DNA from: Vermamoeba vermiformis
Taxonomy: Eukaryota
Direction of reading: 5' to 3'
Length of the DNA: 64,000 nt
Assembly: GCA_045837725.1 (NCBI GenBank)
Contig: JBEWZL010000175.1
Span: 62,001 to 126,000 of the forward strand
Part shown: positions 5,801 through 62,530 of the stretch, piece after piece
How the letters are laid out: each line of letters opens with the position of its first letter
Position numbering within the stretch: position 1 is the first letter of the stretch
Position numbers and translations under genes: made by a program
The notes under the pieces: model-generated
The model's input: only the letters and a program-made list of their open reading frames with translations
Databases searched by the model: none
What the model was told of the DNA's origin: nothing

Positions 5801-8667
5801 ACCCCGAGTTCCACGAGTTGATCAAGAAAGCTGCTCAAAAGTTGAACTTGAAGGAGCACGTCGTCGTTGATAAGAACGTAAGTGACACCATGAAATACTC
5901 GCACGAGTGACTTTTGGATCTAACGACAAACTGTAGGGTCAACAACACAACATTGCTGGTACTGTTGAAGTCAAGGGTATCAAGGGCTCTGATGGTCGTC
6001 ACTACGTCCTCGACTTGGTCAGAATCACTCCTCGTGACGTCAACTACCCCAAGAAGGAACACCAGACTTGCATCTTGCGTCCCGAGTTGATCCAACGCTA
6101 CATCGCTCAATTGATCTTGATCGAAGCTAGCAAGAATATGGAAGCCAAGCGCAAGGCCAAGGCTGCCGAACGAAAGGCCAAGGAAGAGGCTGGTGAGAAG
6201 GTCGACGAAACCGCCGAAGAAGAGAAGATGGACGACATTGAGCTCCCTGAGATCCACTGGGAAGTCAACCCTGATGTCTTCACTGACCACAAACTCGGTG
6301 ATGCTGATGACGTCATTAAGAGCGATCAAGAGTTGGTCACCAAGTTGTCTAACTACTTGAAGAACGACATCATTCCCTCGTTGGTCGAAGAGTTGAGCTT
6401 GGGTCAATACATGCCTGTTGACGGTCAAACTCTCTCCGCTTTGATGCACAACAGAGGTGTTAACCTTAGATACTTGGGCTACGTCGCCAAGTTGGCCGGC
6501 AAGATCGCCCCTGTCGTCCGTGACATGGCCATGCGCGAAATGATCACGCGTGTTGCCAAGCACATCTTGAACGAGAACTTGGTTGACACTGCCAGCTACA
6601 ACCTTGCCCCTGCCATTGCTCACTTCTTGAACGCTTTCTTCGGCAAGATTTCTGGTCCCAACAAGGGCTCACGCTCTGGTTTGGTCACTGACCCCGTCAA
6701 GCCCGTCGAAGCTGCCTCATCGCCTGTTCAACAACAAGCTGCTCCTGCCAAGAAGGGCAAGAAGGGTGAGCAAGCCAAGGACTCTCAAACCAAGGAAGTT
6801 GTTTTGCCTGCTCACTTGCAACGCAAGTCCCCCAAGATCTACGAATTGACTCACAACAACTTGTGGGCTCAGATCCGCAAGATGACTCAAGAGAAGTACG
6901 ACTTCGAGTTGCCCGAGACCATCCCCAGCCACATGTTCGAGCTGCCCACTCTTCGTTCTTTGTGCCAGAAGACCGGTATTCAATTGCACGCTCGCAACTA
7001 CGACTTGAACAAGGAGAAGGCCTTCAACGCCGCTGACATTCTCGACGTCTTCCCTGTTGTCAAGCACGCCGTTCACAAGACCAACGACGGTCAGGACTTG
7101 TTGGAAATGGGCAGAAACTACGTCCAACAAGGTCGCTTGGACACATCGTTCGAGCTCTTGACTGAGTCCCTCGCTCTCTTCCACCAAGTTTACGGTCCTA
7201 TCTCTAGAGAAGCTGCTCAATGCTACTCGTAAGTCACACGCGCACTCGATTGGTTATCGCACGAATTAACCCTCTCTACTGCAGTAACATGGCTATGGTT
7301 TTGTACCAAGCTGGTGATGTCAATCAAGCTATTGCTCACCAAGAAAAGGCTGTTATTATCAACGAGCGATGCTTGGGTCTCGACAGCTACGAGACTTCTC
7401 ACGCATGCGTAAGTACAATTCTTAAAATAAGCTTATTAGTAACATCAATACGGATTATTCAATGATGACTTCGGCATTTGTCTTATGTCACAAGTTGACG
7501 AAAAAACTCGAGCTACCTTAAACTATTTACTGAAAAATAATCCTCTTCTTACATTCTACACCCAACGAATTTGTCTTATTCATACGCTAATATTCTTCGT
7601 GAAATAGGGCAACTTGGCTTTGTTCTACCATCAAATTGGCAAGACTAAGGTCGCGTTGAACTTCATCATGCGTGCCTTGTACTTGAACTACTTGACCAAC
7701 GGTGACCAACACGCTGACAACGCTGGTACTTACGTAAGTAGTTGTAATCGATGGCCCTTTGAAGCTCTTTCTAATCGCGATTGTGCAGAGCAATTTGGCT
7801 CTTGTCCTCGGAGACTTGAAGGCCTACGATCAAAGCATCGACTTCTTGCACCGTGCTGCCAAGTGCTACGAAACCACTCACGGACCTAACTCCCCCATCA
7901 CCGCCAATGCGTAAGTATAATATTTTTAAATAACATTTGCATTGAGAAACAATCGTAAAGAGAATGACGAAAATCTTTCACGCCAGAACAACAATGTTGA
8001 TATTTTTAACCATACTACCAGATGGTCTGATCTCTTCAAAATTTTATCAATTTTATTTCTTCGCGTCCTCGTGTCACTCTGACTAATTCTCGATCGCTAG
8101 TTACCACTCTTTGGCTATTGCTTACAGCTACGTCGAGAACTTCCGCGAGGCTCTTGCTTGGGAGACCAAGAACTACAAGATCTTGAAGGAACTTGTCGGC
8201 GAGAAGCACAACAAGACTATGGAGTCGAACATCTGGTTGAAGCAATTCACCACCAAGGCTGTTGCTAAGGCCAAGACGGATCGCATCCAAGAAGTCAAGA
8301 AGGCTAACTTTAGCTCAGTGTTGCACAGAGATGCACGCAGTTCCGCTGAACCTGCAGTCTCGAGCACGCTTGAGACGCCAAAGCAGCTCGGAACATTGCC
8401 TTTGGCTGAGGTTATGAACTACATTAACGCGCCTTCTAGCAAGTCTAAAGTTGGCAGCTCTGGCCTGAAGAAAGGTAACGTCGGGCACGATAAATATGAA
8501 TGCTTGAATTGATATTAATTGAATTACTAATAGGCGGCCGAAGCACCCAATCTCAACCTAAAAACAGATTCGTTCAGATCCACAAAGCTGTGACTGTTCC
8601 TCAAAAGAAGGCTGAGACTACACCCGCTGAACATGCTAATGGTAGCAACACTAATGCCAAGAAATAA
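2836..8667 (+). CDS. CLU1: Clustered mitochondria protein (CLU1/cluA/CLUH) with C-terminal TPR repeats, ~17 exons
   Basis: Motifs FSGWNPAPSNRKLLGDLFYL, RDWNEELQ, IYNNIFFSYALD, IDYRGFRVMAQSIIPGL, VKGIKGSDGRHYVLDL, RPELI, PVDGQTLSALMHNRGVNLRYLG, followed by TPR helices. GT-AG introns join in frame. Strong codon bias. TAA at 8665-8667. Confidence 0.93.
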
Positions 8668-8852
8668 GGTGCTATTAACATTTTGAAAAAATAACAAGAT
8701 GCGGAACGAGAACCAATTTTGTTTGCGAAATACGAGGTGAAAATCACCAAATAAATTATTTACTCAAATATTCTTTGTGATAATGAGAGCAACTATTTAT
8801 GTTCAAGTGCATTACAGGCTTCGGTGAGCTTGTACATCTGGATGCGCACCCT

Positions 8853-9296
8853 CTATGCTGAAGGATGGTGCTTTTGAAAAGCCAATTTCTTTGCTTTTGC
8901 AACATCCGCATGAGCCTTGGCAACGATATCATTCTCTAAGCTCTAAGAGGTCATTGATTAGCGCAATTTCAAATGGAATTTTGTCCAATTTTCTTTCAAT
9001 GACTTATGGCAATTTGAAGAAAGATAAATACTTAGCTATGCGTACGAAAGAAAATTATGATATTCGTAAATGAAATTAAGACTAGATATCGATTGTCAAA
9101 AAATCAATTTCAAATCGACGGTCAATTTGTCGGATTCGTTTGGTACCTTGCGTCTCTCGGTGGCCTTATCCATTTTTTCTTGCAGTTCTTTCTCGTCACA
9201 TGGATGGAGAGTTTCGTGCTCGAGCTTATCAGCGATCTCGGGTTTGTGGCTGTCTTTGCTCTTGAATTGGACCTCGAAAGCGGTAGGTTCGGACAT
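8853..9296 (-). CDS. Small (79 aa) two-exon stathmin-like protein
   Basis: Exon 1 at 9296-9147, a phase-0 intron of 204 nt (GTACCA..CTCTTAG), exon 2 at 8942-8853. Product: MSEPTAFEVQF..EKELQEKMDKATERRKSLENDIVAKAHADVAKAKKLAFQKHHPSA*. Confidence 0.6.
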
Positions 9297-9979
9297 GTCG
9301 ATTAGTTGTTTTGTGTTATTAAATGAAATTGGAAAAATGGAGTTTGGCGTTTGATTTTAAAGTCGCCGTCGGCTCCAAATTCGCTCACAACTCCACGAAA
9401 ATTCAACGTAAATTGGACCTTAAAATTTGCTTAACATGTAATGAATGCATTTGATACACGCTAAAATGTAATATTCCAAACCGATCCGCTCTCATAGAAG
9501 AAAATGCGAGTGGATCTCGTTCAAATCCGACGAAACCCGACCAAAGAATAGTCACGAACTGCGTGTTTCAGCACTATTAAGGCATCGATGAACACTTGAA
9601 TTAAAAATATTGGTAGATGAGGCTATTCAACGGGTTAGTTGAGCAAAGAAAATTTGCTGCAGATTTTGTCGTTGTCTCTCGCTTCTAACCAACCACAAAA
9701 CTGGTAATTCCGAAACCAATTATATTTATAAGCGTGTTTAATGTTTCGGTCTGTTCGGCAAGCGATTGGCTTGTCGTCGGAAATTGTTCTTCGATCCAAA
9801 ACCAACTCAAAAGCTAACAAATCGCTGTTTGGTGCGTAATTTGAGTTATCGATATTATTTTGGCTTTAATTAATTCCGATTGTGCTGATTTAGAATAAAT
9901 TAAGCTAATTTTAAAATAATTGCAGATTCGCTCCCGAAGCAACGAATTTTGCCAACAGGGGTGCACCACTCAGCCAATC

Positions 9980-12900
9980 ATGTTGGCGTTGCCTAGTACG
10001 TAATTTTTTACACTCGTTAGTACCGTATAGTATTAATATCTGTGCAGTTTTCGAAATTTCTTACCGCGATCGGCAAAAAGATACTACACGCCAACCCGAG
10101 GACGTCTTGCTTCAACTTCCGAGTTGATTTCAGTCGTTAAACATTCAATACCGAGCAAAATTCATATTCAAAAAGAGGATAGTATTGTAGAACAGTACGA
10201 GAAGCTCCGCCAAAATTTAATCGTTTACAACAACAAGCGTGGTAAATCAATTCGAGTGCTTCTTTCAACGTTATAACCATTATTTTGTTAGTCAAAGATC
10301 TTTCAGCAGAAGAAATCAGCTGTTGGGCTCATGAAAAAGGAGCATTCACGAACAAAGAGAAGGACGAGATTCGAGAACGAAACATTAATGGGCAACAATT
10401 GCTGACCTTAATGACTTGGTCAAACAATAGAGTTTCAGCACCTCTGCAGCAGAAGTTAGAGAAGGAGCTTCTTTGCCCAATAAATGATGGTAAGTGGATT
10501 GATTGTACCATTATGCACCAGATCTGACCATCTTTGCAGCTGTTGCATGGACTCCAATTCCAATTGCATTAACTAAACAAGACATTGAATCGCAGTTGAG
10601 GCTAATTGTTCAAGAGGTAGCCCATGTGATGTCTTTGTCAAAAAGTGTTGAACATCAGAAAGCACAAGTCTGCAAGATGATAGTCAATCCCTTGCCTTTG
10701 AACTCAGAAGGCACTTCTTGGCAACCATGCTACTTTGATGATGTTACCAAAGAGTCCTCTAAGGACTTTGAGGCCCTTCACCACAACATTCAAAATACTT
10801 TGAAGGCATCAACTCAAAACAAAGAGCTGATAAATGTTGTGGAGAGTAAGTTGGTTGATCTTACATTTCCCACAAAATAACTGATTTTGTAGTGAGTGGT
10901 GTTGGAAAAACTCATATGGCTATCACTTATGCAAGAATATATGGAGGCTTTGTAATCAGCTTTGAAAAAGACCAGCATGATAGCATTCTTGAGCAAGCTG
11001 CAAACTTCATTGCTGCTCAAAGACAATTTGTGAAGCCCTATGATAATGGCATTCCTGATGCATTCTTTCTTGAACAAGAGTTCAAAGACAAAGCAATCCA
11101 AGTAATGAAACTGATTCAATTAACTTTCATAGAATTTGCAGACTATTTCTTCAAAGCTGCAAATGATATTGAAGAAGCAGATAGACAGACTGCATTCATT
11201 AGAGCAACATTCAATGGAGCTAAACCACTGCTCTTCAAAATGTTTGTGGCAAATTTGAAGTATTTGTCATCACAGAACAATTACATGAAATTTGAATCAG
11301 AAATGCTGCACATTGCATATGAAAGGAATCTACGTGCTGTCTTTTATGATGAAGCATGCAAATGTGAAGAATTCTTGAAAGACCAATTCATTCAGGATGA
11401 TCTTGATAGTTCTCAAGCACTAAGGGTACTGTTTGATATAATCTGGCCGAATGGTACTAATTCATTTTACAAGACATCTGACACTTCTCTGCTCCATGGT
11501 GCTTTGCTTGCCATGCAACAATTTTCAATGTCAACAGTAAAATGTCTAAGCCAGGCAGTAAGATTTAAACAATTGTTAATTCAAATAACTAACTTAATGC
11601 TAGCATGTACTGCTGTCAACTTCTCAGAGTTTGCCTCGTTTAATGTTTATATCACAATCACCAAGAGACAGGCCCATGATCTCTTACCTTTTTTTCAATG
11701 ATTCAAAGACTGCCATTATTTCAAGATTCAAAAGAATGGCAGCCTTTGTATTTGGGGATAGGATTACCCAATATTTGGAGCAGCATTCTTTCGCTTTGTC
11801 AAGGCTCAGTAGTCGCCCTTGCTACCTTTTTAAAGCTTTTGAATTAGAGGTTTGTTAATGTTTTCTATGAGGTATATCTTTAATGCTGTTTAAAATAGCT
11901 TCCAAAAGATAATGACATGGCTAATTTTGTTGCAAACTGGCTTTCTTCTGCTGAAAAAGCAGCACACAAGCAAGCAAAGAGCTACATTGAAAGTGCAGAG
12001 ATAATTCCTGAGCCAGGAATGATTGTTGGGCTAATTGAAAACCATGCTAAAAGGGTGTTTGTGACTGTAAGTTGTTTATGTTATTTCACTGCTAACTAAA
12101 CATTCAGAAAATGCAAAACATAATTGCAGAAATAGCTTTGGGCTCTGGCAATTTCTCTTCTTCTTCATTTGACAATACCCATGTTTGGATTTTTCTAAAA
12201 GCTGGCTTTACAAGAATAGACAATCACCACCAAAAGTTTGATTATTATCTCAGCCATTATTTCAAGTCATTGCCCTTCCAAACCTTGCTTCAGGTAAAGT
12301 GCTCCTGCCCCAATGAGCTTTAACTTAATTCCATTTCAGATCTTCAGACGTGTTCCCCATTTTAATGGCAACTCTAGTGCAATTGGGAAATACATGATTT
12401 CTTTGTTGTTCAAATGGGCTTCAGAAACATCAACAGCTCTTAGTAAATTGGTGCCATTCAAAGAGGTTCCAGAATCCATCAAAGACTTAAAAGTTCAGCA
12501 GGGCTTGCAAGTCATGCAGTACTCTGAATTGGAGTCATTATTGCAGTCACAGCATGGAATATTTGATGAAAATTGCTTCAATAACTTGCCTGCCTTCCAC
12601 TTCAAACCTACATATGTGCTTGGCCCTGACTCAGTTCTGTTGCTCACCAATGAAAAAGAGGTTGTTGGATTTTTGGTTGTGCATGGAACAAATGAGGAGA
12701 AATCACTTGGCATGACAGAGTTTGTTAATGAAGCTCTGCCTATTCTTAATCCAACAAATTTCTATAACAAAGGAAAAAATGTTGCTGATGTTCAATCCTG
12801 GAAAGCACTGTACAAGCAGCTGAAATCAAAGAATTACATCTGGGTCAGGGTATGTTTGCAGCACATGATTAATCATGGTCCTAACATTACTTGCAGGCAA

Positions 12901-13135
12901 TTTTTGCCAAGGGATTTACACAGCCTGTGTGGCAGCTAGTACGAAAATGGAATTTGCCTCAAAAGAAGGGCAGAAACAACCCATTCTGTTGCTAACTCCA
13001 ACAATTGTCCCTGGTCTGGTACAGCCTGAAGAGCACAGAAAAGCTGTTGGACAGTACAAACCAAGCACTCTCACTGCAACAAAAATTGATAATGCAACAA
13101 AGAGATTGTTGAGGATGAGCTACCAAGTATGCTAG
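9980..13135 (+). CDS. SAM-like + P-loop NTPase + degenerate PD-(D/E)xK-like protein (Crinkler/CR-type architecture); 5' exon appears frameshifted
   Basis: SAM-like segment VKDLSAEEISCWAHEKG..EIRERNINGQQLLTL; Walker A SGVGKT; Walker B RAVFYDEA; C-terminal HFKPTYVLGPDSVLLL..GFLVV. Short (~40-55 nt) GT-AG introns link the listed ORFs in frame. The start at 9980 is tentative. Confidence 0.6.
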
Positions 13136-13227
13136 ATTTTGATTTTGTTATGGGCAATGGATGAATATGAACAGTTTATTTGCTTGAATGTTACCTTGAT
13201 TTATTTTAGTATAAAAAGCATGTCAGA

Positions 13228-15733
13228 CTAGTTTCGTCTATTTCTTTGTCCTGTTGTCTGTTGTTTGCCTTTTGCTGATTTTTTCTTTTCTTCCACATGT
13301 TTAGCTATGAATATTAACATCATTAGTTTTCTAACAAAAGAAGATATTGTTACTATATATCTACCTTTCAAAGAGTTAATTCTTGCCGTCATTTGTTTGT
13401 ACAGATCCGCTCGTTGATTTTTGATCAATTTTTGGAACAACTCAAGGCCTGAATTGTCTTCAATATCGAACATCATTTCAACGACCTACGTGACATAATA
13501 ATTGAGTTATTATGATCATTGAGTTGGTTAAAATGTGTTAAAAATATTCGTTTGTGACACGTACTCGCAAGAAGTTTTGAGCGTTGCAAACATTTTGAGT
13601 GACAGCGACAGTATCGTTCAGATTTAGCACTTGATGCCACCAACCTGCAGGCACATAGATCAAGTCACCTTCCTAAAAAGGAAATGATATTTAGTTTCGA
13701 CAAGTATATGTCAAACGCAGTATGAAACCGCCGTACCTCCTGCGTAAATTCGATTGGTTTTTTGTCCGCAGCTAATTTAGGATAATACAAGTGGTGCCAT
13801 TTGATCGCGGAGGGAATGGATCCGTCTTGAACGTAACCTGATTTATCGACCTTGCTCATATCCACACCTACATATAGAGGATAATTAACAACGTATATAT
13901 ATTTCTAAAGTGCGTATAATTAATATTGGTATTAAAATTTTGGGTTAATGTTGAACGGCCGTGAAAAAATTGACCGCGTGACACGTGTCACTTTGACATT
14001 CACTAGCTTAATAAGAAGGTAATGTATATCTATGATATCAATATGGTAATATGTGCTTACCAGGGGGAACAATATTAGGTGGATATAAACTCCATTTCTT
14101 GCGACCTACAATCAGTGCGTTCCAAGCGGATGTGCCTGCAACAAAAATATTAAGATTCGTCAATTAAGAGAATCATAAGCCATATAATAGAGTTTACTAT
14201 ATAAGTACCGATATTACGTAGTGTTATATGAGTCTTACCGTTCGGGTCGATGTGAAAGACGGTGCCAGATCTAGCGGGCCCGATCAAGAACCATCGGTAA
14301 TCAGGCCGCGAGTTCTGCATGTAACTGAAATAATCTTCTTGGAATAATCTTGGCACGGAATAATCTTTCAACAGATCTTTTGCGGTCTCAGCGAACTTGT
14401 TGTCGAACATGTACATCGGCTCTTCGTCATGTTGATCTGGATCGGACAATTAAAAATTAATATCATTTTATAATTAAATAGGGACCCGTATTATTCAAAA
14501 CATTTAATATTTTTGAGGATATTTTATGACCGGATCCAGATCGAAAGGAAATTTTTGAATTTGAACTTACGCTTGATGTACTCAACAAAATCGGGCATTT
14601 TCATCTTAATTCTTTTTCCATATCTGTTGTATTCTCCAATCTATGATATAATAATGAGTCAGTTGTTTGTGATTGGATCTGAGTGGTTTTTTAGCACGTG
14701 CGTACCTTGAACATTTGGGTCTTGAATCTCGCCACTAATTGATCGAATTTCCAGTTGTTCATTGCTGCCCACTTGTTCAAGGCACCTCTAATAATAACTG
14801 GGCGACCATATTCGGGGAATTGTTTGTCGAATCGTTTTCTGAATTCGATAAGATCTAGATCCGGATCGACATTAAAACTTCGTGTGAATAGCTTGCAAAC
14901 GTTTATACTGCTTATATGATAGTGATATATATGTATTATAATTATTTTCTTAATTATATATAAGTTTGTTTTAGTTACCTATATCGCCAGTAATAATTTC
15001 GACTTCAGGTGACTGCACATCCGATACAAACTCCGATAGAGGAGCATTTGCTCGATAATACTTTTGATCTAATATCTCAGACTTCCATACTATAATTGTA
15101 TTATGATTAAATGAGTTTGAATACAAAGCAGTTCTTTTCGGATCCGTACCTGTGATCGGCTTGAGCTTCGTTAATTCCTCGCGCAATGCCTTTCTCGGAA
15201 AATAGAAAGTATATTTCCAATTTCCCTTGAAGAAAAAGTTGCCTAGTAACGGGCCGAGTTAATAACGTGATAATTGGATCTCGATCGCATCTCAAAATTT
15301 GTTTGTCCATAATTTACATTTGAAATAATATTATGCGGTGTTTATATAAATATTACCTTCCCATTTGTCGAAGCAAATTTCTCGCCAGAGCTCTTCTAGA
15401 TTTGCAAAACGATAAAATGCCAAACTGACTCTCGCCACGGGCATTAACTCTTTGGCCGAGAATAAATCTAATAAAAATAATTGTAATAATTAGTATTGTA
15501 ATATTTTCGTAACTTCATTATCGCGTCTCATTCATGAAAGCGGATCTGTAATTTTCGAATTTTTAAAAATATCACAGGTCAATTGTAGGCCTTTTAAATG
15601 ATAAATACTTTCGGTATTTATATAAGTAAATATTCTTACTTAATATTTTAATTATCAACTCATCGCTCAGTGCGCCAATGGTTCCCAAACTGTGCGATCT
15701 GTCGTCAGCTGTTACGTTTTGTTCAGTAGACAT
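13228..15733 (-). CDS. F-box + JmjC protein (JMJD6-like 2OG/Fe oxygenase)
   Basis: N-terminal F-box-like GALSDELIIKIL..RVSLAFYRFANLEELWREI. JmjC motifs RPDYRWFLIGPARSGTVFHIDPNG, TSAWNAL, YVPAGWWHQVLNL, VAVTQN, with the HxD..H triad intact. Confidence 0.85.
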
Positions 15734-18584: not shown

Positions 18585-21272
18585 ATGGACGTGATCTTAC
18601 CGCTGTCGACGCTGACGTCATTAACATGCCGCGTAAAAAATGTTGGATGCAATTCATATCTTAGTTGTGATAAGCCTGGCGCATTCACTGTAAATAAAAT
18701 GATAGGTAATACCAATTTTATAATTAATTTTTCATTTTTAATTCCAAATCCACGCTTCAAGCTTATAATTCTCCTCTATTACCGATAAATAAATATTTAA
18801 TATCAAATTTATACGAAATATTTGCTTGTCAATGATTTTATTTGAATTCAATCGTGAGTCGAAAATTTCTCTCGATTTTTACGAGGTTTCTATTCTTTAC
18901 TGACCCAATTAATACAGCCAATTAATAAATATTTATATTATATAGGTGGCAAATCAGAACAATTTGTTCTTACTAGACGAGTTATTGAAGATCAACCAAC
19001 AAACCGAAACGCGATCTCGATCAAATCTCAGTTCGAAAGATTTGTTTCAGCTGAACGACGCGGTGGAGCAGGCGATAGGACATGGGTCAAGACATGGGAA
19101 GTTTTCACGGTAGAGCTATTGCCTAAAGGTACATTTGGTGCAATATTTTTCTGCTGTCGAGCAAATCCAATTCTTTTTTTGAATTATCGCTTATTAATAA
19201 TATCCTATTAGGCAAGATTCGTTTCAGAACATTTTGGAATACTTATTTAGCTGTTGTTCGAGATTCTAAGCTTGGAACAACGAGAAATGGAGAAGATCCA
19301 TCTTGCATTTGGACGATCGAACGAGAATCTTCAATAATTGGCGAGGTAAGCATTGAAAATAATTACAATATACTAGATTATTTATCGGAATATTTATTAT
19401 GGCTATTTAACGCTCCAGTAGCATTTTTTTGATCGGATCCAATGTACCCAAAATTTAATAGCTTATTTTATTTAGCTATTAAAGCGATGGAACACGATGC
19501 CACAAAACGATAAATTCGAGTTTAATAATTTATATATCAACGATGAAGAATTGAAGACTATATGCAGCGTACTCAAAACAAAAAAGCAGATCCAGTTTTT
19601 GAAACTCGGTCATAATTTAATTAGCGATGAAGGCGCTAAATTGCTCGCACAAGAGATGAGACTAGGGAATATAGTCTTAAGGAAGATATGGCTCGATCAT
19701 AATATGATTACTGGTGAAGGTGTCAAAGCACTGTGTGAAGTACTAGAAGTCACGGATCAAATTGAATTGTTGCATTTGGGCGCGAATAATATCGGCACTG
19801 GTAAGTCACTGCTATTTCAAATTCACTGAAAAATGTTCGCACAATTTCGAGTTTGACATTTTTGACACGCAACATGTCACTTCAATTTTTGCGTGTCAAA
19901 CTGGATCCTGCGACAAATTTTCTATCTATTTACGTCACTAAATATGAAACGTGACGGTATTATTCTTTGTCGGGATCACCATTTGACACGTGTCATGAAC
20001 AACGAGATTTTTCGCCAGTCAGACCAAATGGATCCTGCGCAACAAATCATCTTAAAGAGATTTAACTTCCATAACAAACTTTTTAATGAGGATCAGAGTT
20101 TGACACGTGTCATAAAATGTCATCGTTTGATGTTGCGTTTCGAAAAAGTCAAACTGAAGTTTGAGATTTTGATCACTTTCCCGATTTATGACGCTAGACT
20201 TCAAGCTATCAAAACTAATTTGACACTTTTAATTTATGATTGCATGGAATCTCACTCGAGTTACTAATTATGGAATTATTTTGACAGACGGCGCTCAGTT
20301 CATCGCATCAGCATTGCGAAAGAATAAGAGCTTGACGTACTTAAGTCTAGCTGACAATAAGTTGCTAGACCAAGGAACCGCGTTCATAGCTGCTGCTTTG
20401 CAAGAAAATCATAAGCTGCACTTTCTATATTTGGATCGAAATTTTATCACGGATGCATCTGCCGAGATCTTGGCCGTCGCTTTGCAAGACAATCGTGGCG
20501 TTAGCGAGCTATCGTTAGCACAAAATGATATATCGCTTAATGTCGCTAAAAAGCTGATCAATAAGCGACTTAAAGAACTTGAGCTGTTTGGAAATCCGCG
20601 GATCAGGGATACGGATCTCAAAGTCATTGAAGAACAGATCCAAGCGAATAATACCCCGCAAATATTATTGCATATTAAAGCTATACCAGAACAAAAGCAA
20701 GAAATTAACGTGAGAATTCCAGAAGAGAGAAATAACAACGTAAATAATACTGCTACGAATTCTTCCGGTAAGTCTTTTTCCAACTTTTATCAACGGAATT
20801 ACATAACAAACATTATAAATCGATAGTATATAGATATATTTAGTTTCATATACCGCAAATTGTTGCTTGAAATTCACTGGAGAAGAATTTAACCTTCAAA
20901 AATGTTGCTTCGTACTGTTATTTCCTACTTTTAACGAATTAATCCTCAAATTACAACTTTAATTCCTTTTTAAATATTAAAATACTTTAAATAAATAATG
21001 TCAGGCTCAACGCCATCGAAAAACCGATCAATTTTATTCACAGATTAACTTAAACAAATACTCGTTAGTTCGTATTTTTAAGAATTATATACTAATATTT
21101 ATTTTAACGTATAGAAACGCGATTATGCGTCATATGCGAAGACAAGCCAGCGACAATGTTATTCAACAACTGCGGTCATTTGTGTGTCTGCGAATGTGCT
21201 GTCAGAGCGAGCTTATTCAAGTGTCCTATTTGTCGCAAAGACGGGCAGTTGATCAAATTGTACAGAGTGTAA
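18585..21272 (+). CDS. Fascin-like beta-trefoil + RI-like LRR + C-terminal RING protein (putative E3 ligase)
   Basis: N-terminal [38 protein letters not shown]. LRRs [17 protein letters not shown] and [20 protein letters not shown]. Last exon [30 protein letters not shown]. Confidence 0.75.
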
Positions 21273-29599: not shown

Positions 29600-30300
29600 G
29601 GAACTGTATCATAGCGATAGCGAGTCTTCAATGTAATTAGTTGTAATATTACTTTGCGAATTCTGTTGTATTTTTAGCTCACATTTTTGACTCGATCCAA
29701 AAAGCGATCGAATAAACCCTGTAAATAACTTCCCTCCAACTTATAGTCACTTCTATTCTTACTTATTAATAAGGATCTTGAGTTGTTCCGGTGCGCAATA
29801 GATCCGCGCAACCATTGCAAGTTAGTACAAAAAGCGAAAATTTGGAACATTCAATTGCCTATTATTCGGAGTACTTCCGCTGCGTGAATAAGGCGTTCCT
29901 GGGACCTCATTAAAGCAAACCAAACGGAGTTCCTTGCGACAAACGCGAGCAGAGAAGCCGATGTTAGAGAAGAACCTGAAGATCTTTCGTTTATAATCAT
30001 TTGATCTTAAAGCCTTGAATTGCAACCACTATTGTCATAAATTTCAATCAATTGCTCGCTGTAGAATGTCTTCAAAAAGGATCTTAAAGCGCAATTAACG
30101 TTCAAATTCAAAAAAGAAAAGCATAATCTGCATTGCAATTGCTTCACCAAAAGCTTGATATTTTGCATTAGATTAATTGTGATTGCCAGTTGATAACTAT
30201 GCTTGTTGTTGTGGTGTTGAGACAGTGAACAGAAGATCAAAAGCCCGTGGCCAAAATCTTGGCACCATTAAGCTACCAACCTATTACAAAAGAACAAGCA

Positions 30301-32697
30301 ATGGTTAATGTGCTAGGATTGGGTATTGTTGGTCTGAGCTTTGTTTCGGTCTTTGGAAGCATTGGCATCGTGTCTTGGTGGCTTTTGAAAGCTCTGCATC
30401 CAACTACGCCAAAGTACGCTAAATAATTGCTAAAAAATTCAAATAATATTTTTGCACGGGTAATTAATGATATTAACTCAAAATAAGCATTCTGCGTTTC
30501 TGATCAAGATCAGATCTGTCATCTGAACCCTTTCTAATTTCACAAACGAGCGATTATAACGTCTATTATTTAATAATAATAAATTTAAACGTCCCCAAAT
30601 ACATTCCAGTCAAATTTTAAACATTCTTAGCTCATCTAGACTAACCCATTTATTTATAGGCCCTTAACAGCTCGACAAAAGCAATTAGCACCAGTATTGA
30701 TAGCAGTGAGTCTAGGAACATTTTTCTTCTATGCACCCGTGGCACTGGATGCAGCCGTAAACACCGTGGAATTGATCGGAACACTGCCACTCGTGACCAC
30801 TGAAGCACAAGGTAAAATCGTCAGCGGAGATTTGTTAGATATTATTCGATATTACGAGTAGCCTCTGTTAGAAAAGGAATTGCGGCTGTTCGTTTAATGA
30901 TTGAGAAAATTGATCCGTCGGAAAAATTAATTCCGCCTTACGGACGGATCAACTCAAATATCCATTTAAAGCAATACTTTGCCTTAATTGTTTACTAACA
31001 TAGTAATTATCGCTATATTAAGCTTTTTTTTCGTTGCAGATCTGTTCGCGTCGCTTTGGATCGGAGATACAAACGCAGGTAGGAGACCAATCCACAAATT
31101 AATAATATTTCCTCATAAATATCTTCGTACATACTTATGAGAGCGACATTAGATATTACTGCGCTATTCTCAACATTATTGTTCCGTTCCTTATTTAACC
31201 GTCATACTTCAGAAACTCTATTGTGGCCAAAGCGAGATCTGCTCAAATATAACGACTTGGGACACGTGGATGTGCCGAGACTAATTGAAGGCAATGTAGC
31301 TCTTCAAGGTTTTTCGGTCGTTACGCGAGTCTGGTTATTTGCCGGGGATGCGGGTGTGAGCGAACCACCTAAAGGCGTTACCGACGCAGTCGCTATTAAA
31401 GCTGTAGCTGAGGTAAATATTCGGTTTACTTTTTAAGCTATTATTTGAATTTTAAATTGAACTGTCAACCATAACTTGATATTTTTTTGAAAGTTATTAA
31501 ATTTACTAATTGGTTAATTTGCTTATCGAAAATTAATTAATAGCAGTTAATTAATGTATTTTATTTAGATGTGGGGCGTTTGGCCCGTGTTTTCACTGCC
31601 TGAACGAGCCTTATATCAAATGAATCGATTGGATGTGTTAGAAAAGAGCTCTAATGGCACATTCCGCTTTATTAAGACTAAACAAGACTTGATTGACTAC
31701 GAAGAAGCTAGAAAAGTTAATAAGAAGATGACCGCGGGCTACTTAACTATTAAAGGTGCGTGTCCAAGTAGATCAGATCAATTTTCAAAGTGATCGGATT
31801 TGACCCGTATTGACTATTCATATAGGCCTTCATGTTGTTGGCAAGTATTTATCGAACATTGACAAATTAGTAAACGCTGGAGCCCGTGTAATGGTAAAGT
31901 CTAAAAATAGCACTTGATCGGATCGTACTTTGAATACTAAATTGAATGAATTTAGAGTCTCGTGACTATGTTCGACAATGATATCGCTGGTAGTGCACAA
32001 GGACAGGCTAAATCAGGTTTAACACCGTTTGGTCGCAAAGTTGTAGATCGGCTCGTTAAAAACAACGGTAAGTAGATCTTGAAAATAATATGTTAGTGCC
32101 ACGCTAACACTATACAGTTATCATCGACGTATCACACGCTTCAGAGGCGCTATTAGACGACTTAAATTCGATTTTCAATGAGAGTTTTCCCGTGCCATTA
32201 ATAAGTACCGCATCTGGCATTGACAAAGTGTGCCAACATCACCGAAATTTGAAAGACAAGTAGGATAAAATATCGGAATATATTATGTACTAACGTAGTA
32301 TAGATATATCAAGATGATTGCTCGTAGTGGAGGTTTTGTCTCGATCTCGTACTACGCTCCATTCGTTTGTGGCGACGATCGCTTTGCTAGGTACGAATGA
32401 AACTAACTAATAATATTATACTAACGTTATATTAGTATCATTCAAAGCATTCGATACGTTGTCAAATTGGTTGGTGCAAAACACGTTGCTTTAGGATCCG
32501 GATTTGATAGCATGCATTCGGTACAGCCACTTTAAAAGCTTTTAAGTATCGTACTAATATTATCTTAGACGCCAATCGATGCTTCAGATATGAAGTACAT
32601 CGTTCAAGGACTACTTCATGCCGGTGTTTCTAAATCTGACATTGCGCTAGTTATGGGCGAGAATTTGAAGAGTTTGCTAGCGAAATATTTGCCTTAA
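30301..32697 (+). CDS. Membrane-anchored peptidase M19 (renal dipeptidase family) homologue, probably inactive
   Basis: Two N-terminal hydrophobic segments; LLWPKRDLL..GHVDVPRLIEGNVALQGFSVVT; GLTPFGRKVV; IIDVSHASE; RNLKD; HVALGSGFD; VMGEN. Confidence 0.85.
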
Positions 32698-34262: not shown

Positions 34263-35830
34263 ATGAAGTTTTATGCAACCTTCGGAGCTCTCACACTATT
34301 TGGTGCGTACTCGTTGATCAGGACATTGATCAGACGAGTCGTAAAAAAGCAATTTAATCCAAAAATGTAAGTACTAAAATATAACAAACAATATGAATTT
34401 ATATTATTTATATTATTTATATTATTTATATTATTTATTTTATCTTACATCGTTATATAGCGAATTATTAAAATTTATTTTTCTCTAAAATGGCTGATCA
34501 GGCTCTAAATTAATTCAATCTTGTATTTCAGACCGCAACATCCACTATTGATAAGAGATATTCAATTGGAAATATTAAACATAATTTTGCGCGACGCATC
34601 TAGCAAAGACGAAGATCTAAATAATCTAGCACTCGTTTGCAAAGAATGGAACAAACTAATATGCAACGACCAAATATGGCTCAATAAGTTTCAAATATTA
34701 CTAAACAATAAGATCAATATAAACCGAGAAAACAGCCAAGAAATCAAGATCGAACAGATTAGATCTATTTTTGGATGTGTTTCAGATCTCTTACCACCTC
34801 GAACAGTTTATTATATATTAAGACCCAAGTTGAAGTTCTTAGACCATGAAGACGGTTCAGTAGCTAAATTTACACCGGATCTGATCCAAGTACCGCAAGA
34901 AAAAGTTTGGATGCCGTGGCTCAACCACAATATTATTCAACGACCTGATACTCTATGGAAGTTTATATATACAATTATAAGATACCCTCGTTGGATCTTC
35001 CCGATGATCAATTCTTACACGTGCAGCGGACACATGCCTTTCACGAAGCCAGATTCTTGTAACTCGAAACGATTTGACAAAATTTTGCTGATTATATCCG
35101 TAAGTACATATATAAATCCACAACTATAGATGCATTATCAGTTCTTATAATGATAAGAAGGATTTTTTTATTGCCAAAAATTTCGATCGGATCTTGCCAC
35201 CAACAAGTTATGCCGACAAAGAAATCATGTTTAGGAACTAATTTAGGCTAAAATAGTATTTTAATTATTAAATCTGAAAGTTTAATATAGTAATTTATCA
35301 ATATTATAATGATCCTACATTGCGTACGAAAGACTAATATTTTTTTAGTGCTTCTCAGTTTTGCCGTGGCTCGACATGGTGATATCAAACACACCGTCAG
35401 TAACTTTGTTATGGGACAGACCGATGTGGCCAATCTTTGCACAAATTCAAGCGTTTCTTTGCTTGATTTCAATGCAACTATTCGACAACTCATTCAACAA
35501 CAAAAGATTTTATCGGATCCGAGTAGCATTGGCGATTATAACGATGTTATTAACGAAAGGCCTAAAGTCGTCAATATATACATCGGTTCTCATATTATGC
35601 AAATTTCTGCCGGAAGAAGTGGCAAAACATTGGATCTTGCCGTTGATTGTCTTAATTATGGCTCTAATGATTTCGTACCCTATAGCGACAATACTGCTAG
35701 TTATTATGGCACTAATACTAGTTTGGGATTCTGTTGTTCGAGGCCTCAAAAACTCTCCGAGGAAGATATCTTACGCACGTTATTTTTTCCTGTTGAACAT
35801 TGCAACGATTTTGTGGGCGATGACAACTAG
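34263..35830 (+). CDS. F-box protein with N-terminal hydrophobic + basic anchor; 3' end uncertain (may extend to ~36043)
   Basis: Exon 1 MKFYATFGALTLFGAYSLIRTLIRRVVKKQ splices in frame to PLLIRDIQLEILNII..DLNNLALVCKEWNKLICNDQIW. Confidence 0.7.
34397..34440. repeat. Intronic AT-rich tandem repeat (TTTATATTAT x~4)
   Basis: Direct reading. Confidence 0.7.
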
Positions 35831-41750: not shown

Positions 41751-44053
41751 ATGGACACAGATGTGCGTGAAGAACAAATAATAGCGGCGCTTGAAACGAT
41801 TGATTCGGGCACAACGCCCATTGAAGAGAAAGTTTGGGCGGTGAAAGATCTATGGGACTATTCTTGTCAAACTGGTATTAAAAATATTTATAAAAATATA
41901 TAATTATTATGCGGACATATTATTCAATGAAATACTTGTTGTTAGTCCGAGTAAATTTCGGATGTCCGACGGAAATCGTCAGAAAAATATTCTAGTTGGC
42001 TTTAAAATTGTACAATAATATTAATATAATTTATATAGCGGGTAGTGCCGTATTAATCGGATCTATGGCCCTGAAAAAAATTATTAGCTTGTGCAATCAC
42101 GATGCTAAAATGATGCGTGTTGCTTCTCTGCATTGTTTATGGAACTTAAGCGCATATGAAGAAAATAAAGGTAATATTATATTATTAAATAAGTCTTTAA
42201 CAACAATTTGGTTACACGAACCAGATCGAATTATTTTGGATTCACGTTCTGATCTCCGTTTTAGGCAAGGTTGTAGAAGAAGGAGCATTGCCTATAATAT
42301 TGCCGCTTATTCAAAACCCTAACGGCGTCGATAGTGATACATTAAACGCTGTCTCAGCAATTCTGCAAAATGTCTCCGAATCCAAATTCAGATCGGGTAC
42401 GTTCCTGAAAGGCCAGTTAAAGAACGATAGTCTAATATATTATTGTGTATATTAGGAGCATCCAATAAGCATCAAGTTCGAATAGTTCAAGAAGGTGTTG
42501 TGGATGCGGTAGTCAATTTAATCAAATCCGTTGAACTTTTCCCGGGCATTCAATGGCGATTGTGTTTATTGCTTGCAAATTTAACTATGCATCGTAAGTA
42601 TGATATATAATTATATATCATCCTATTAACTATTGATGTAGCGCAAAATATTGAAAAAATTAGTTCGGTCGGAGCGTTAAAATTAATAAGCGAGTTTATT
42701 ATGACAATTGGACCTGAGTTATGGCAAGATGTACGTGATTAAATTTAATTCTTAAAAAGTGATCTAAGTTATATAACTCTAAATTCACATAGGACGATAG
42801 TTTTGCGAGCTGGTTAGGACTTCAACCTTTTGTACCGTTATTACAGTCACGTAAGTCATAGTATATATAATAAAGATATATAATATAATTATTAAAATAT
42901 GAAATACTTACTAATGTATAATTATAGCGATATTAGAAGTAAAATTAATGGGCGCATTTAGTCTGGCCAGATTCACTGAAGAAAGTACGTATAATAACTC
43001 ATTATAATAGCTTACTATATACAATTAATGCTATAATTAGGACAATATCATTCAAAATTCTGGCGAGATACGTCGCTGAACGGAGGAATGGATCCGATTT
43101 TTCAACTTATAAAATTGGCGTACAGATCTGAAGAAGAATATGAAGTTAATCTCGTTAAATTAATTAGGAAGTACGCTAAAATGATTATCAAAAGCGTAGG
43201 ATTGCAAAGTAAGTGGTTTTCAAGACCGATTATGATGGAATCCAGATCTGATCCGGATTCACTTTCACTGAAAACCGATCAATAATCTCACGTGATTTTC
43301 ATTTGCAGTTGATAAGGAAGCAGTTGTTATCAAAGAAAGTACGATGACGAAGGATTACAGACAATTGTTTTTGTCGGGCAAAGGCGCAGATGTGCATATA
43401 ATCATGGACACGCATTGCATTCCGTGCCACAAATCAATTTTAATGGCGCGCTGTGAGTACTGGAAGGCAAGATTTGACGTCACGTGGGACAAATCGAGCA
43501 GTACAGCGCCAATTACAGATGGAATTCAAGTCGTGAAAATTGATGACTTGGAGTACGCTGCTGTTAAAATCGCTTTGGAGTTTATTTATTGCGACTTTGT
43601 GCAATTGTCGTGGGAGAATGCCGTGGATGTGTTGGGTACGTTACAAATGACATTTTTGACACTTTTGACACTTTTGACACGCAAGAAATTTTCACCAAGT
43701 ATAGTCATAGTGGATACTATTCTAATCCATATGGATGTTTATTATAGAGGTGTCTGATCGATTTGGTCTCGAGAGATTGAAGCACATGTGTGAAGACGTG
43801 ATCCGACAGGCAATTGACGTGGAAAGTGCAGAACGATTGTTATTGCTTGCTGATCGATATTCAGGTACACATATTAAATTTCCTATTTAGGAAGTCAGAA
43901 CGATCATTACTAATGTTATTAATAGCGAAACAATTGTTCCAAGCCGCGGTGAAGTTCGTGTCAGAACATTACAAAGAAGTCGCACAACAGCCGCACAGCA
44001 CTTTAGAGGCACTGCCGCAACATATTAAGGATCAATTGAAGATACCTAAATAA
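41751..44053 (+). CDS. Armadillo-repeat + C-terminal BTB/POZ protein
   Basis: ARM-like SLHCLWNLSAYEENK, KVVEEGALPII, RIVQEGVVDAVV. BTB ADVHII..IPCHKSILMARCEYWKARF..ALEFIYCD..DRFGLERLKHMCE. Confidence 0.85.
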
Positions 44054-60741: not shown

Positions 60742-62530
60742 ATGGTAAGTGTCAAATCCGAATTAAATACGGATGCAACCCGTCAGAGCACCGATGCGTT
60801 GTTAGTATAATAATTTCTAAATTTAGCAGTTTTTTAACGCTTAATTGACCAAGTTCTCACAGGATAAAGTCCCCAAAGAGATTAAATCAACGATTTTGAA
60901 TTATTTGGATGATAAATCACGAAGAATAGCTCGAGTTACATGCCAAGAGTGGTTTAATATTATCGATTACTGCAACTTTACTCTTTATTTGACCAAAAAA
61001 TCAGAATGGCCTCAGATCGTGGACCGACTTTCCTCATACTCCAAACCAATCAGTCTCAAGTTATCAAAAAATATTATGAACAGCTTAGAAGATATCAATG
61101 AGCATTTACTGCGCTTAACAAACGTCACATCCTTGCATATTCAGAATTTGAAATCAAAGGGAAGACGGAATGCGGAATCAGAATGGTTTAAACTCACAGC
61201 GTTATCAAATCTTCAAGGAGTTGCTATTGGAGACCCCTTTTACGAAGTGCCATTAGAGCCATTGTTGCATTTACCAAAGCTTGCAACATTAGTCGTACAA
61301 CCTGATCAGATCAGCTGCGCGGACCTTGCCCAAAGAATTCGGCTATTAACCAGCTTGGAAAGCCTTAGCTTCATTGAAGTGGAAGATCCAATTAAGATCA
61401 ACTTGTTCGAAGAATACCAATCCAAAATGTCGGCCCTGATGTGCTATGTCCCGGATGTGAAGAAACGCGTCGCAGAGAAATGGTTCGAAAACTTGGGCGA
61501 GCTTAAAATATTAATACTTAATATCACCGAAGGAGATAGCGACGATCCAATTTCACTCAAATCGCTGACATCTCTCAAATGTTTGGCACTGAGCGGCGCG
61601 TATTTTCATGAACTGAATAGCAAACACTTGACATACCTCGAAGTATACCAAGCCATCGATGAAACTTTTGAAGAAGAAATGATCAACGCAGTCAACATCA
61701 AGCAGCTGAAGATTAATCGCAAATTGAAGTCGTATCAATGGTTAACTGCCCTGACCGCCCTGGAGAGTCTTGACATTGTTAGCAAACAAAACGACATTTT
61801 GTCATTTGTCTCATCCAAATTGACGAGTTTAAAACTCAGTGTCAAGAAAAATCCGCTTGATCTGGATAACTTGACGAAGTTTGAAAATTTGAAGCATTTA
61901 CAAACTGACCAACTCCTTGACAACGTGTCAGTAGTAGGACACTTAACGCGTCTAGAATCGTTGAAGATGCTGTTTGCAGTGAAAGAGAAGGCCATAATTG
62001 ACACCAACTTTGTATCCGCAATGTCAAGTTTAACGCGTTTAGAACTCTCACACAGTTCGGCAAAAATATCACATCTACCACACTTGGAGCATTTGGTATT
62101 ACACCTTCAGTCTACTTGCAGATACACTGGTTTTGTGGACTTGCCAAAGCTAACTCATCTGGAGCTGTATCAAACCAACCGACAAGACGCTTTTGATTTC
62201 TCTTTCGTGTCTCAATTCACCACGCTTAAACACGCTCATTTGCAGCTTGACTTCCCATTCTCCTATCAGCAACTTTCAACGCTGACGTCACTAGAATTCT
62301 TGTACCTTGTGTTTAGTGGATCCGACTTCGAACATTTATCACCAATGACGAGATTGACCTCACTAACTGCCCGCGGAGTTATATCAGAGACTATGCTACA
62401 GTTGCCTACGTCGTTACAAGTGCTGAAAATGGAGCTACCACAAACGGATATAGGAGCTTCGCTTGTTGAAGCTGCCGTAGCGCGATTACCAAACTTATAC
62501 GAATACTTTTTTGAGGCTGCTTCTCATTAA
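60742..62530 (+). CDS. F-box + leucine-rich repeat protein, ATG-only first exon
   Basis: ATG|GTAAGT..CACAG|DKVPKEIKSTILNYLD..ARVTCQEW; many LxxLxxLxL repeats (LTSLESLSF, LTALESLDI, LTRLESLKM). Confidence 0.8.

Follow-up and report, generated by a model that had tools for sequence, protein, structure and literature searches.

Results

Gene content of the locus

The window, by which we mean the whole 64-kb stretch of DNA analysed, contains a housekeeping CLU gene, kinase exons and P450 exons, all with a CpG observed/expected ratio (o/e) of ~0.7-1.5 and none depleted. In a tree of the CLU gene, a single gene for which 27 of the 98 matches (picked for their names or top scores, with the other 71 left out) were placed together with the window, the organism shares a clade with every named amoebozoan (SH-aLRT 99) and does not group with fungi, suggesting that it is probably amoebozoan. 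At the locus studied here, a proposed orphan gene on the forward strand converges with a cupin_8/JmjC-like gene on the reverse strand (Table 1).

Table 1. Features at the locus, in window coordinates.
Feature	Position	Strand	Remarks
Proposed orphan gene	9980..13135	+	Model and start codon from sequence alone; exons 1-6: 9980-9999, 10048-10241, 10292-10489, 10540-10845, 10893-11425, 11474-11557; exons 7-11: 11604-11849, 11899-12066, 12108-12293, 12340-12853, 12897-13135
CpG-rich 5' part of orphan gene	9980..10378	+	399 nt from the proposed ATG, 23 CpGs
Left-edge exon	10292..10489	+	Carries the domain edge 10378/10379, near codon 30 of its 66; predicted to encode a weakly SAM-like four-helix segment
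CpG-depleted domain	10379..13386	.	3008 nt, 9 CpGs, CpG o/e 0.09, TpG/CpA o/e 1.49
Walker-A-like motif SGVGKT	10895..10912	+	Start of the 177-aa exon; read from the translation, without profile support
YDE motif (Walker-B-like)	Near end of the 177-aa exon 10893-11425	+	Read from the translation
Last coding exon and stop codon, cupin_8/JmjC-like gene	13228..13304	-	Inside the domain; its only CpG (13235) lies in a CGA Arg codon
Last intron, cupin/JmjC-like gene	13305..13364	-	Inside the domain; related-strain RNA reads stop matching at 13365 (X14, X16)
Penultimate exon, cupin/JmjC-like gene	13365..13482	-	Right domain edge 13386/13387, 22 nt inside; RNA joint 13482 to 13563

The introns of the orphan gene all run GT..AG, are 41-50 nt long and resemble the host P450 intron. 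Its 825-codon spliced frame is free of internal stops and stays open up to a TAG at 13133-13135, in agreement with the original prediction of a largely open reading frame.

The same prediction had described the gene as SAM/NTPase/nuclease-like and as a transposon-related, Crinkler-type or effector locus. Of the first description, only the Walker-A-like and YDE motifs are visible, the SAM part has weak support, and the nuclease part found none. The left-edge exon has no Pfam match; its best PDB match by phmmer is the SAM domain 1v85 (E = 0.13), and the first 13 Foldseek matches listed for its single-sequence model (pLDDT 64) are all SAM domains, with E of at least 2 and TM of 0.35-0.44, which weakly suggests a SAM-like fold. 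The second description found no support: searched exon by exon, so that domains split by introns may be missed, the gene gave no match above noise in Pfam, PADLOC, PHROGs or NCBIfam (in Pfam, no exon matched at E <= 0.1 to 1), and a check for terminal repeats at the domain edges found none. A Crinkler/CR-type effector, combining an NTPase with an REase, was likewise unsupported, as no Crinkler header, CR-NTPase or restriction-endonuclease-fold domain was recognisable in the exons tested singly. Foldseek gave no PDB match for the structure model of the P-loop exon (pLDDT 71.8), and Atlas offered no lead of at least 0.9, with scores of 0.87 or below.

Only eight relatives of the orphan gene were found among 1.84 billion representatives, diverged at 34-55% identity. 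Viral contigs yielded no relative, two metagenome scans and one viral scan yielded no matching locus in the DNA of relatives, and the 64-kb window holds no paralogue or duplicate. In the DNA run X1, contigs align with stretches of the gene before becoming unlike it, leaving loose ends at 10985, 11016 and 13088. Since such partial matches and the diverged relatives both exist, the gene belongs to a family.

A single, sharply bounded CpG-depleted domain

CpGs are dense through 10378 and dense again starting at 13387; we therefore set the domain bounds at 10379-13386, both edges being resolved to tens of nucleotides. The domain retains nine CpGs (10591, 11333, 11448, 11637, 11792, 11814, 12349, 12942 and 13235), whereas local base composition and the background o/e predict 133, and background density predicts 142. 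This amounts to a loss of ~93% (Poisson P ~1e-45), and the o/e compares with 1.27 elsewhere in the window. The original hand counts of ~9 CpGs in 10381-13380 and ~21 in 10021-10380 turned out to be exact, at 9 (o/e 0.086, GC 37.3%) and 21 (o/e 1.57), respectively. Its further statements that CpGs return abruptly after ~13385 and that the remainder of the window is CpG-rich also agree with our values.

No second comparable stretch was found in the 64-kb window. The o/e analysis that had been proposed for the genome, carried out here in 500-nt bins within the window, picks out the island alone, with no bin outside it below 0.62. Seven of the nine longest CpG-free gaps of the window fall in the island; among the 2874 gaps outside it, the longest is 153 nt and the mean 21 nt.

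The domain edges ignore gene borders, the left one falling within an open exon and the right one within the neighbouring gene. On the left, the edge falls 399 nt past the proposed ATG, in an exon joined in phase to CpG-rich upstream exons; the segment 10047-10378 has 19 CpGs (o/e 1.49) and the upstream region an o/e of ~1.5, so the promoter and first exons do keep their CpGs, as had been noted. If an in-frame ATG near 10411 is the true start of translation, the left edge of the island would fall at the 5' end of the gene, and the mid-exon argument would be weaker. On the right, the coding frame of the cupin/JmjC-like gene is continuous across 13386, and the portion of this gene inside the island (13231-13386, 156 nt) has one CpG compared with 7.4 expected (P = 0.005), matching the ~150 nt of encroachment first estimated. 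Among the differences from the RNA strain listed in 13365-13600, 3 of 11 involve CpG, TpG or CpA (13384, 13387 and 13450); their direction is mixed and they are too few to indicate polarity.

CpGs were converted in place to TpG and CpA

The predicted abundance of TpG/CpA inside the island is marked, with an o/e of 1.49 compared with 1.03 outside; relative to 111 background windows of equal length, z is +8.4. TG and CA together number 523, where background density would give 366; this excess of 157 stands beside a CpG deficit of 133. TG (266) and CA (257) are nearly equal; therefore, both strands were affected. When a loss of 93% of CpGs was simulated in the 111 background 3-kb windows, the TG/CA o/e rose to 1.47 +/- 0.05, close to the value of the island.

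Before a base other than G, the T:C ratio at codon third positions is 142:140 in the island and 453:447 in host genes, whereas before G it is 109:1 in the island and 197:193 in host genes. The introns and spacer of the island are depleted like its exons, with one CpG in 525 nt compared with 24.7 expected, and the depletion thus stems from mutation and not from codon choice. Since the TpG+CpA excess is close to the CpG deficit, noncoding DNA is depleted as well, and codon ends are host-like except before G, the decay took place in place and does not reflect foreign composition. The CpG loss is an in-place, CpG-specific, strand-symmetric transition decay of CpG to TpG and CpA.

The reading frame was kept during decay

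Neutral decay of a host-like coding sequence is expected to create a mean of 3.9 new stops, with a probability of 0.0085 of creating none. Moreover, five of the eight remaining coding CpGs lie in Arg CGN codons, compared with a background share of 19.5%. The intact frame of 825 codons and this concentration of surviving CpGs in Arg codons indicate that selection acted during the decay.

Two RNA runs from a strain 90-95% alike placed no reads on 9000-13220, and the neighbouring gene was covered at a depth of ~0.4-12 in this diverged strain. The zero count on the orphan gene may be due to divergence, or to the gene being missing from the other strain, instead of to silencing; because the runs come from a diverged strain, we treat absent reads as a weak sign of silencing.

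Discussion

A putative methylated domain

5-Methylcytosine (5mC) deaminates to T, and methylated domains become CpG-poor. Long-term, locally targeted, heritable CpG methylation yields just such an in-place replacement of CpG by TpG/CpA. We consider it likely that a chromatin domain of ~3.0 kb has been CpG-methylated in the cell lineage over long evolutionary time, and from the deamination of 5mC and the CpG poverty of methylated domains we infer DNMT-made 5mC, targeted at the orphan gene, as the cause. Of the 5mC footprint originally proposed, the sharp island, the in-place CpG to TpG/CpA change, the edges in an exon and in the neighbour, and the open frame are retained; its assignment to a transposon-related or effector-type locus is not.

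The methylated domain would begin ~400 nt past the start codon of a lineage-restricted, multi-exon gene with a P-loop motif, and would run past its 3' end into the cupin/JmjC-like gene, taking in the last exon of that gene, its last intron and 22 nt of the adjoining penultimate exon. As 5-methylcytosine deaminated spontaneously, ~93% of CpGs would have become TpG or, read on the opposite strand, CpA, and purifying selection would have kept the reading frame and preferentially spared those CpGs whose change replaces arginine. Judging from established knowledge, methylation of the domain would probably be repressive. Several points weigh against this reading: 61% of the eukaryote species surveyed are without DNA DNMT (PMC12344493); across protists, how far a whole genome is depleted of CpG does not go along with its 5mCG level (PMC12695648); the island keeps a slight compositional deviation after simulated decay; and the promoter and first 400 nt are spared, unlike in methylated genes of Acanthamoeba.

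Alternative explanations

The gene could have come from a CpG-poor donor, through lateral transfer, a virus or a transposition event, and have kept that donor's composition. The gene is indeed an orphan with few relatives, methylated genes in other protists are often viral in origin according to parts of PMC12344493, and even once decay is simulated the island stays slightly outside the multivariate background (centroid distance 5.36, background 95th percentile 4.90), deviating in AA (+2.6 SD), AC (-2.7 SD) and TA (-1.9 SD), although dinucleotides apart from CpG and its products lie within 2.7 SD. Yet the T:C ratio outside the CpG context is that of the host, the gene has eight GT..AG introns of 41-50 nt in host-like style, the TG/CA excess equals the CpG deficit, and the edges lie inside an exon and inside the neighbouring gene with no flanking repeats; no viral-contig relative and no PHROGs match were found either. 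We regard such an origin as highly improbable, consistent with the original argument against a simple donor effect, which the codon ends and edges uphold. An assembly chimera or a contaminant segment joined into the contig seems the least credible account of all. One listed X1 contig does begin at 10382, beside the left edge, and among the pieces listed, which leave out 82 others, none bridges either edge. Nevertheless, the open frame and the SAM-like alignment cross 10379, exon phases fit on both sides, the coding frame of the neighbouring gene crosses 13386, codon use and introns are host-like, and X1 depth is similar inside (~275, mean of bins) and outside (~322).

Two further accounts accept the decay and differ on its agent or its date. 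A CpG-directed mutator other than maintained 5mC, for instance a RIP/MIP-like process triggered by repeats or a deaminase directed at a multi-copy family, would suit a gene that belongs to a family, as the loose ends and diverged relatives indicate. Fungal RIP produces a CpA to TpA bias, an excess of TpA and nonsense mutations in duplicated DNA, and to our knowledge RIP is known only from fungi. The island resembles RIP, or CpG-biased repeat hypermutation, in showing C-to-T transitions in a discrete block of a gene-family member. In contrast to RIP, however, it has no CpA to TpA product (TpA o/e 0.55, below background, with CpA raised to 1.49), its frame is intact with no nonsense mutations, unlike RIP-inactivated repeats, the 64 kb contain no paralogue, and the CLU tree does not place the organism with fungi; we give this agent very little credence. 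The footprint might instead be a fossil, left by a domain formerly methylated in a lineage or at a locus that no longer methylates, with CpGs not yet regained. The age of the process cannot be told from the footprint by itself, CpGs are frequent in the remainder of the window, and most sampled protists are without DNA DNMTs according to PMC12344493. On the other hand, the very low o/e and the edges sharp to tens of nucleotides suggest little recovery, and the gene persists in a relative at 90-95% identity, so that we consider a fossil improbable.

Implications and comparison with known systems

If long-term, targeted methylation is indeed the cause, raw sequence alone would reveal targeted CpG methylation, present or recent, in a poorly sampled and probably amoebozoan lineage, together with one of its targets. 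The case is cleaner than usual, with no background depletion, finely resolved edges and an intact gene. It is suited to asking how a promoter bounds methylated domains, whether such domains spread into a convergent expressed gene, and whether a gene stays functional under very long-term methylation. In addition, comparing codon-end T:C before G and before non-G offers a simple screen for targets in genomes without a methylome.

Gene-body methylation in invertebrates and plants, which gives rise to a class of genes with low CpG o/e, marks conserved, steadily expressed genes. As far as a footprint can tell, the locus resembles it in keeping CpGs beside the transcription start, in the depleted body, and in the intact and selected frame. 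It differs in that the housekeeping CLU gene, the kinase and the P450 are undepleted, whereas the depletion falls on an orphan gene without related-strain RNA reads.

Passages of PMC12344493 contrast gene-body methylation of invertebrates and plants with the type found in Acanthamoeba. There, Sarre et al. 2025 describe sparse, repressive CpG methylation in Acanthamoeba castellanii on silent lineage-specific or virus-derived genes and young TEs, covering 2.4% of genes, mostly silent, and 3.4% of the genome (PMC12344493). As far as those passages go, our locus shares with Acanthamoeba probably the same supergroup (by the CLU tree), a genome that otherwise looks unmethylated, few affected genes (here one island in 64 kb) and unaffected conserved housekeeping neighbours. 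Unlike in Acanthamoeba, where methylation was measured, covers promoter and body and falls on many viral-looking targets, what is seen here is a mutational footprint, which spares the promoter and the first ~400 nt and affects a gene for which no viral or TE similarity was found. Insertions in Acanthamoeba are described as transient in parts of PMC12210455, whereas here decay is almost complete, in a gene that is intact and apparently under selection. In Amoebidium, giant-virus endogenisations are marked by 5mC, according to excerpts of PMC11244446; common to both would be local 5mC, putative in our case, aimed at particular inserted or parasitic DNA in a protist, although the targets there are large viral insertions and here a 3-kb, intron-rich, cellular-looking gene without viral relatives.

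In the main texts on CpG depletion in amoebae and on Physarum methylation that our search covered, no single-gene CpG-decay island in Amoebozoa was found. Set against transient parasite silencing and housekeeping gene-body methylation, the locus might conceivably, though in our judgement not probably, exemplify a third mode, for instance through a gene of a conflict or immunity family that can be switched epigenetically and whose methylation extends into the 3' end of an expressed neighbour. In this mode a functional, selectively maintained orphan gene with an NTPase motif would stay under stable, heritable body methylation for long enough to lose 93% of its CpGs, with its promoter free, in an amoebozoan-like protist without general gene-body methylation.

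A sharply bounded domain of the window is depleted of CpG

Across the entire window, CpG occurs at an observed/expected ratio (o/e) of 1.22 with a GC content of 38.5%. In 10381-13380 we found nine CpGs (o/e 0.086, GC 37.3%), against 21 in the 360 nt preceding 10381 (o/e 1.57), exactly as counted by hand in the original prediction. The list of CpG positions is dense to 10378 and dense once more from 13387, which bears out the sharp bounds claimed for this island and fixes its edges precisely (Table). With 133-142 CpGs expected in the domain, the nine present correspond to a Poisson P of ~1e-45. Seven of the window's nine longest CpG-free gaps lie inside it; elsewhere there are 2874 gaps, which reach at most 153 nt, and none of the 500-nt bins across the window outside the island has an o/e below 0.62.

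A second, far weaker patch was also seen (CpG o/e 0.42-0.53 and TpG/CpA o/e 1.42-1.48 in 400-nt windows); it has short ORFs only, and two stretches in it, of 147 and 101 nt, lack CpG. Two mild dips (CpG o/e 0.66-0.71, TpG/CpA o/e ~1.3-1.4) correspond to the GC-rich part of the CLU (clustered mitochondria) gene and to a stretch that directly follows the last listed ORF of the CLU region.

Table. Coordinates of the CpG-depleted domain, the genes around it and other features of the window
Feature	Position	Strand	Remark
CpG-depleted domain	10379-13386		3008 nt
Residual CpGs in the domain (n=9)	10591, 11333, 11448, 11637, 11792, 11814, 12349, 12942, 13235		
Island gene	proposed ATG 9980; TAG 13133-13135	+	eleven exons, sequence model
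Upstream introns, island gene	10000-10047; 10242-10291	+	
Second exon, island gene	10049-10240	+	
Left-edge exon, island gene	10292-10489	+	
Residual coding CpGs, island gene	TCG 10591; CGT 11333; CGT 11637; C|G 11792; CGC 11814; CGT 12349; ACG 12942	+	
Cupin_8/JmjC-like gene, convergent on island gene		-	Pfam PF13621, E = 1.4e-4, under Pfam cut-off
Last coding exon, cupin_8/JmjC-like gene	13231-13304	-	consistent with RNA read ends
Last intron, cupin_8/JmjC-like gene	13305-13364	-	consistent with RNA read ends
Residual coding CpG, cupin_8/JmjC-like gene	CGA 13235	-	
Weaker patch	30001-30500		
Mild CpG dips	6401-7000; 8501-9000		
F-box, LRR, BTB open frames	20233-20823; 34509-35129; 43296-43754; 60845-62530		

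The depletion points to CpG decay in place

The low CpG content could reflect either decay in place or a foreign composition. The island holds 523 TG plus CA dinucleotides where background density would give 366, bearing out the abundance originally noticed, with TG (266) and CA (257) nearly equal. This excess of 157 for a CpG deficit of 133 opposes a foreign composition, as does the choice between T and C in pyrimidine-ending codons before non-G, which is even in the island gene (142:140) as in host ORFs (453:447). Before G, the same ratio is 109:1 in the island gene against 197:193 in the host. Likewise, arginine is written as CGN in ~16% of cases (4 CGN vs 20 AGR) against 67% in the host. 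Codon use in the island gene is thus host-like except where a CpG would form. Introns and spacer within the island are depleted too (1 CpG in 525 nt vs 24.7 expected), which indicates a mutational cause rather than codon choice.

We also simulated decay in 111 background windows matching the island in length, applying transitions to a randomly drawn 93% of their CpGs. The simulated TG/CA o/e was 1.47 +/- 0.05 vs 1.49 in the island, and the simulated GC content 34.3 +/- 2.4% vs 37.4%. In favor of a foreign composition, the island is still a mild outlier after simulated decay (centroid distance 5.36, where the 95th percentile is 4.90), chiefly in AA (+2.6 SD), AC (-2.7 SD) and TA (-1.9 SD); the windows nearest to it in composition are then the coding-dense ones. 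The island edges carry no terminal repeats, direct or inverted, the 64-kb window holds no second copy, and the short introns of the island gene are like a host P450 intron, for which the smallest options that keep the frame measure 51-66 nt. Together, the five results (TG/CA amount, simulation, codons, introns and spacer, and repeats, copies and intron style) point to decay in place.

The island gene was constrained while its CpGs decayed

We built the island gene model from sequence alone. A script check of the eight junctions downstream of 10292 showed each intron to be GT..AG and 41-50 nt long, with the joined frame staying open for 825 codons without internal stop, in agreement with the open ORF originally described; the two upstream introns fit in phase as well. 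The left island edge cuts through an exon (Table), 399 nt past the proposed ATG, and these first 399 nt contain 23 CpGs, so the promoter-proximal part and first exons do keep their CpGs as had been claimed. On the other side, the neighbor's introns are given by RNA reads from a related strain, which cease matching at 13365. From the edge position and this exon layout, the island covers the final exon and final intron of the neighbor and enters the adjoining exon by 22 nt. These 156 nt contain 1 CpG vs 7.4 expected (P = 0.005), confirming the predicted extension of ~150 nt into the convergent gene. The two stop codons are separated by 92 nt (13135-13228), hence the 3' UTRs of both genes must be tiny or overlapping.

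When host-like coding sequence of equal length was decayed neutrally in 2000 trials, 3.9 new stops arose on average, and only 0.85% of the trials stayed free of them, as did the island gene. Moreover, five of the eight residual coding CpGs of both genes occupy Arg CGN positions (4/7 for the island gene alone, P ~0.03 by hand calculation), where a transition at either base of the CpG alters the amino acid; in the background, such positions make up 19.5%. The absent stops and the Arg CGN retention argue that the island gene was constrained during the decay. We conclude that the island is genuine and was formed in place via CpG-specific transitions, with purifying selection acting.

The island gene is an orphan

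Profile searches were run exon by exon, so that intron-split domains may be missed, and none of the exons, searched singly, matched a family in Pfam, PADLOC, PHROGs or NCBIfam. The AlphaFold model of the 177-aa exon (pLDDT 71.8) had no match in PDB, and Atlas gave no score of at least 0.9 for the gene. These empty searches leave the Crinkler, nuclease or transposon label unsupported. The 177-aa exon shows two motifs, Walker-A-like SGVGKT and YDE, and has only eight relatives among 1.84 billion representatives, all short fragments with 30-55% identity save one at 95%; the gene is an orphan. As to the SAM part of the original description, the left-edge exon is weakly SAM-like: its best phmmer match in PDB is the SAM domain 1v85 (E = 0.13), aligned across the island edge, and Foldseek, run on its low-confidence model (pLDDT 64), lists SAM-domain entries in each of its first 13 rows, none with E below 2.

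The second exon shows a sub-threshold Pfam match to the methyl-CpG-binding domain PF01429 (E = 0.14; 12.2 bits where the cut-off is 21), which covers just positions 34-58 of the 77 in the profile and is probably due to chance, though curious in a methylated-looking gene. Elsewhere in the window, F-box, LRR and BTB open frames are abundant, one of them a 561-aa F-box plus repeat ORF that lacks introns, and kinase and P450 exons also occur.

Contigs of the DNA run X1, from which the assembly may derive, match the island gene in part before running into unlike sequence, their loose ends lying at 10985, 11016 and 13088; the continuation at 11016 resembles, by eye, one relative of the 177-aa exon. 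The genome thus seems to hold paralogues of the gene elsewhere. X1 depth is similar inside (~275, bin mean) and outside (~322) the island, indicating no copy-number jump; among the listed contigs, none is shown spanning either edge. A water-metagenome run, X3, contains 90-97%-alike pieces of both gene and flanks, so a relative retains the gene. The listed pieces differ at 65/1131 island and 23/742 flank positions, a weak comparison given 82 further unlisted pieces. Two RNA runs, X14 and X16, made from a strain 90-95% alike, cover the cupin/JmjC-like gene and place zero reads on 9000-13220, which is compatible with silence but also with a gene that has diverged or is missing in that strain. On 13221-15000, 44/46 reads of X14 and 103/105 of X16, both under the same species label as X1, are 90-95% alike, so the label spans clearly diverged strains or species.

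Comparison with known methylation systems

In a CLU tree of 28 rows (a single gene, with 27/98 matches used), the window falls in a clade with all four Amoebozoa named in the tree and no other named taxon (SH-aLRT 99). For Acanthamoeba, PMC12344493 reports 1.3% CpG methylation globally, 381 methylated genes (2.4%) that are mostly silent, and 966 methylated regions (3.4% of the genome) with H3K9 methylation; the same paper describes plant- or animal-type gene-body methylation as absent there, and a DNA DNMT as missing in 61% of the eukaryote species surveyed. According to PMC12695648, genome-wide CpG depletion across protists does not track 5mCG, a caveat that concerns whole genomes and not a sharp contrast within one genome.

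Judging from the sequence, we consider long-term, locally targeted, heritable CpG methylation, as originally proposed, to be quite probably the best explanation of the island; such methylation would have driven the decay of its CpGs. The island pattern is a hybrid of two known methylation modes. As in repressive protist methylation, the target is a member of an orphan family; as in gene-body methylation, the gene is intact and its promoter and initial 400 nt escape the depletion, here seen as a footprint alone.
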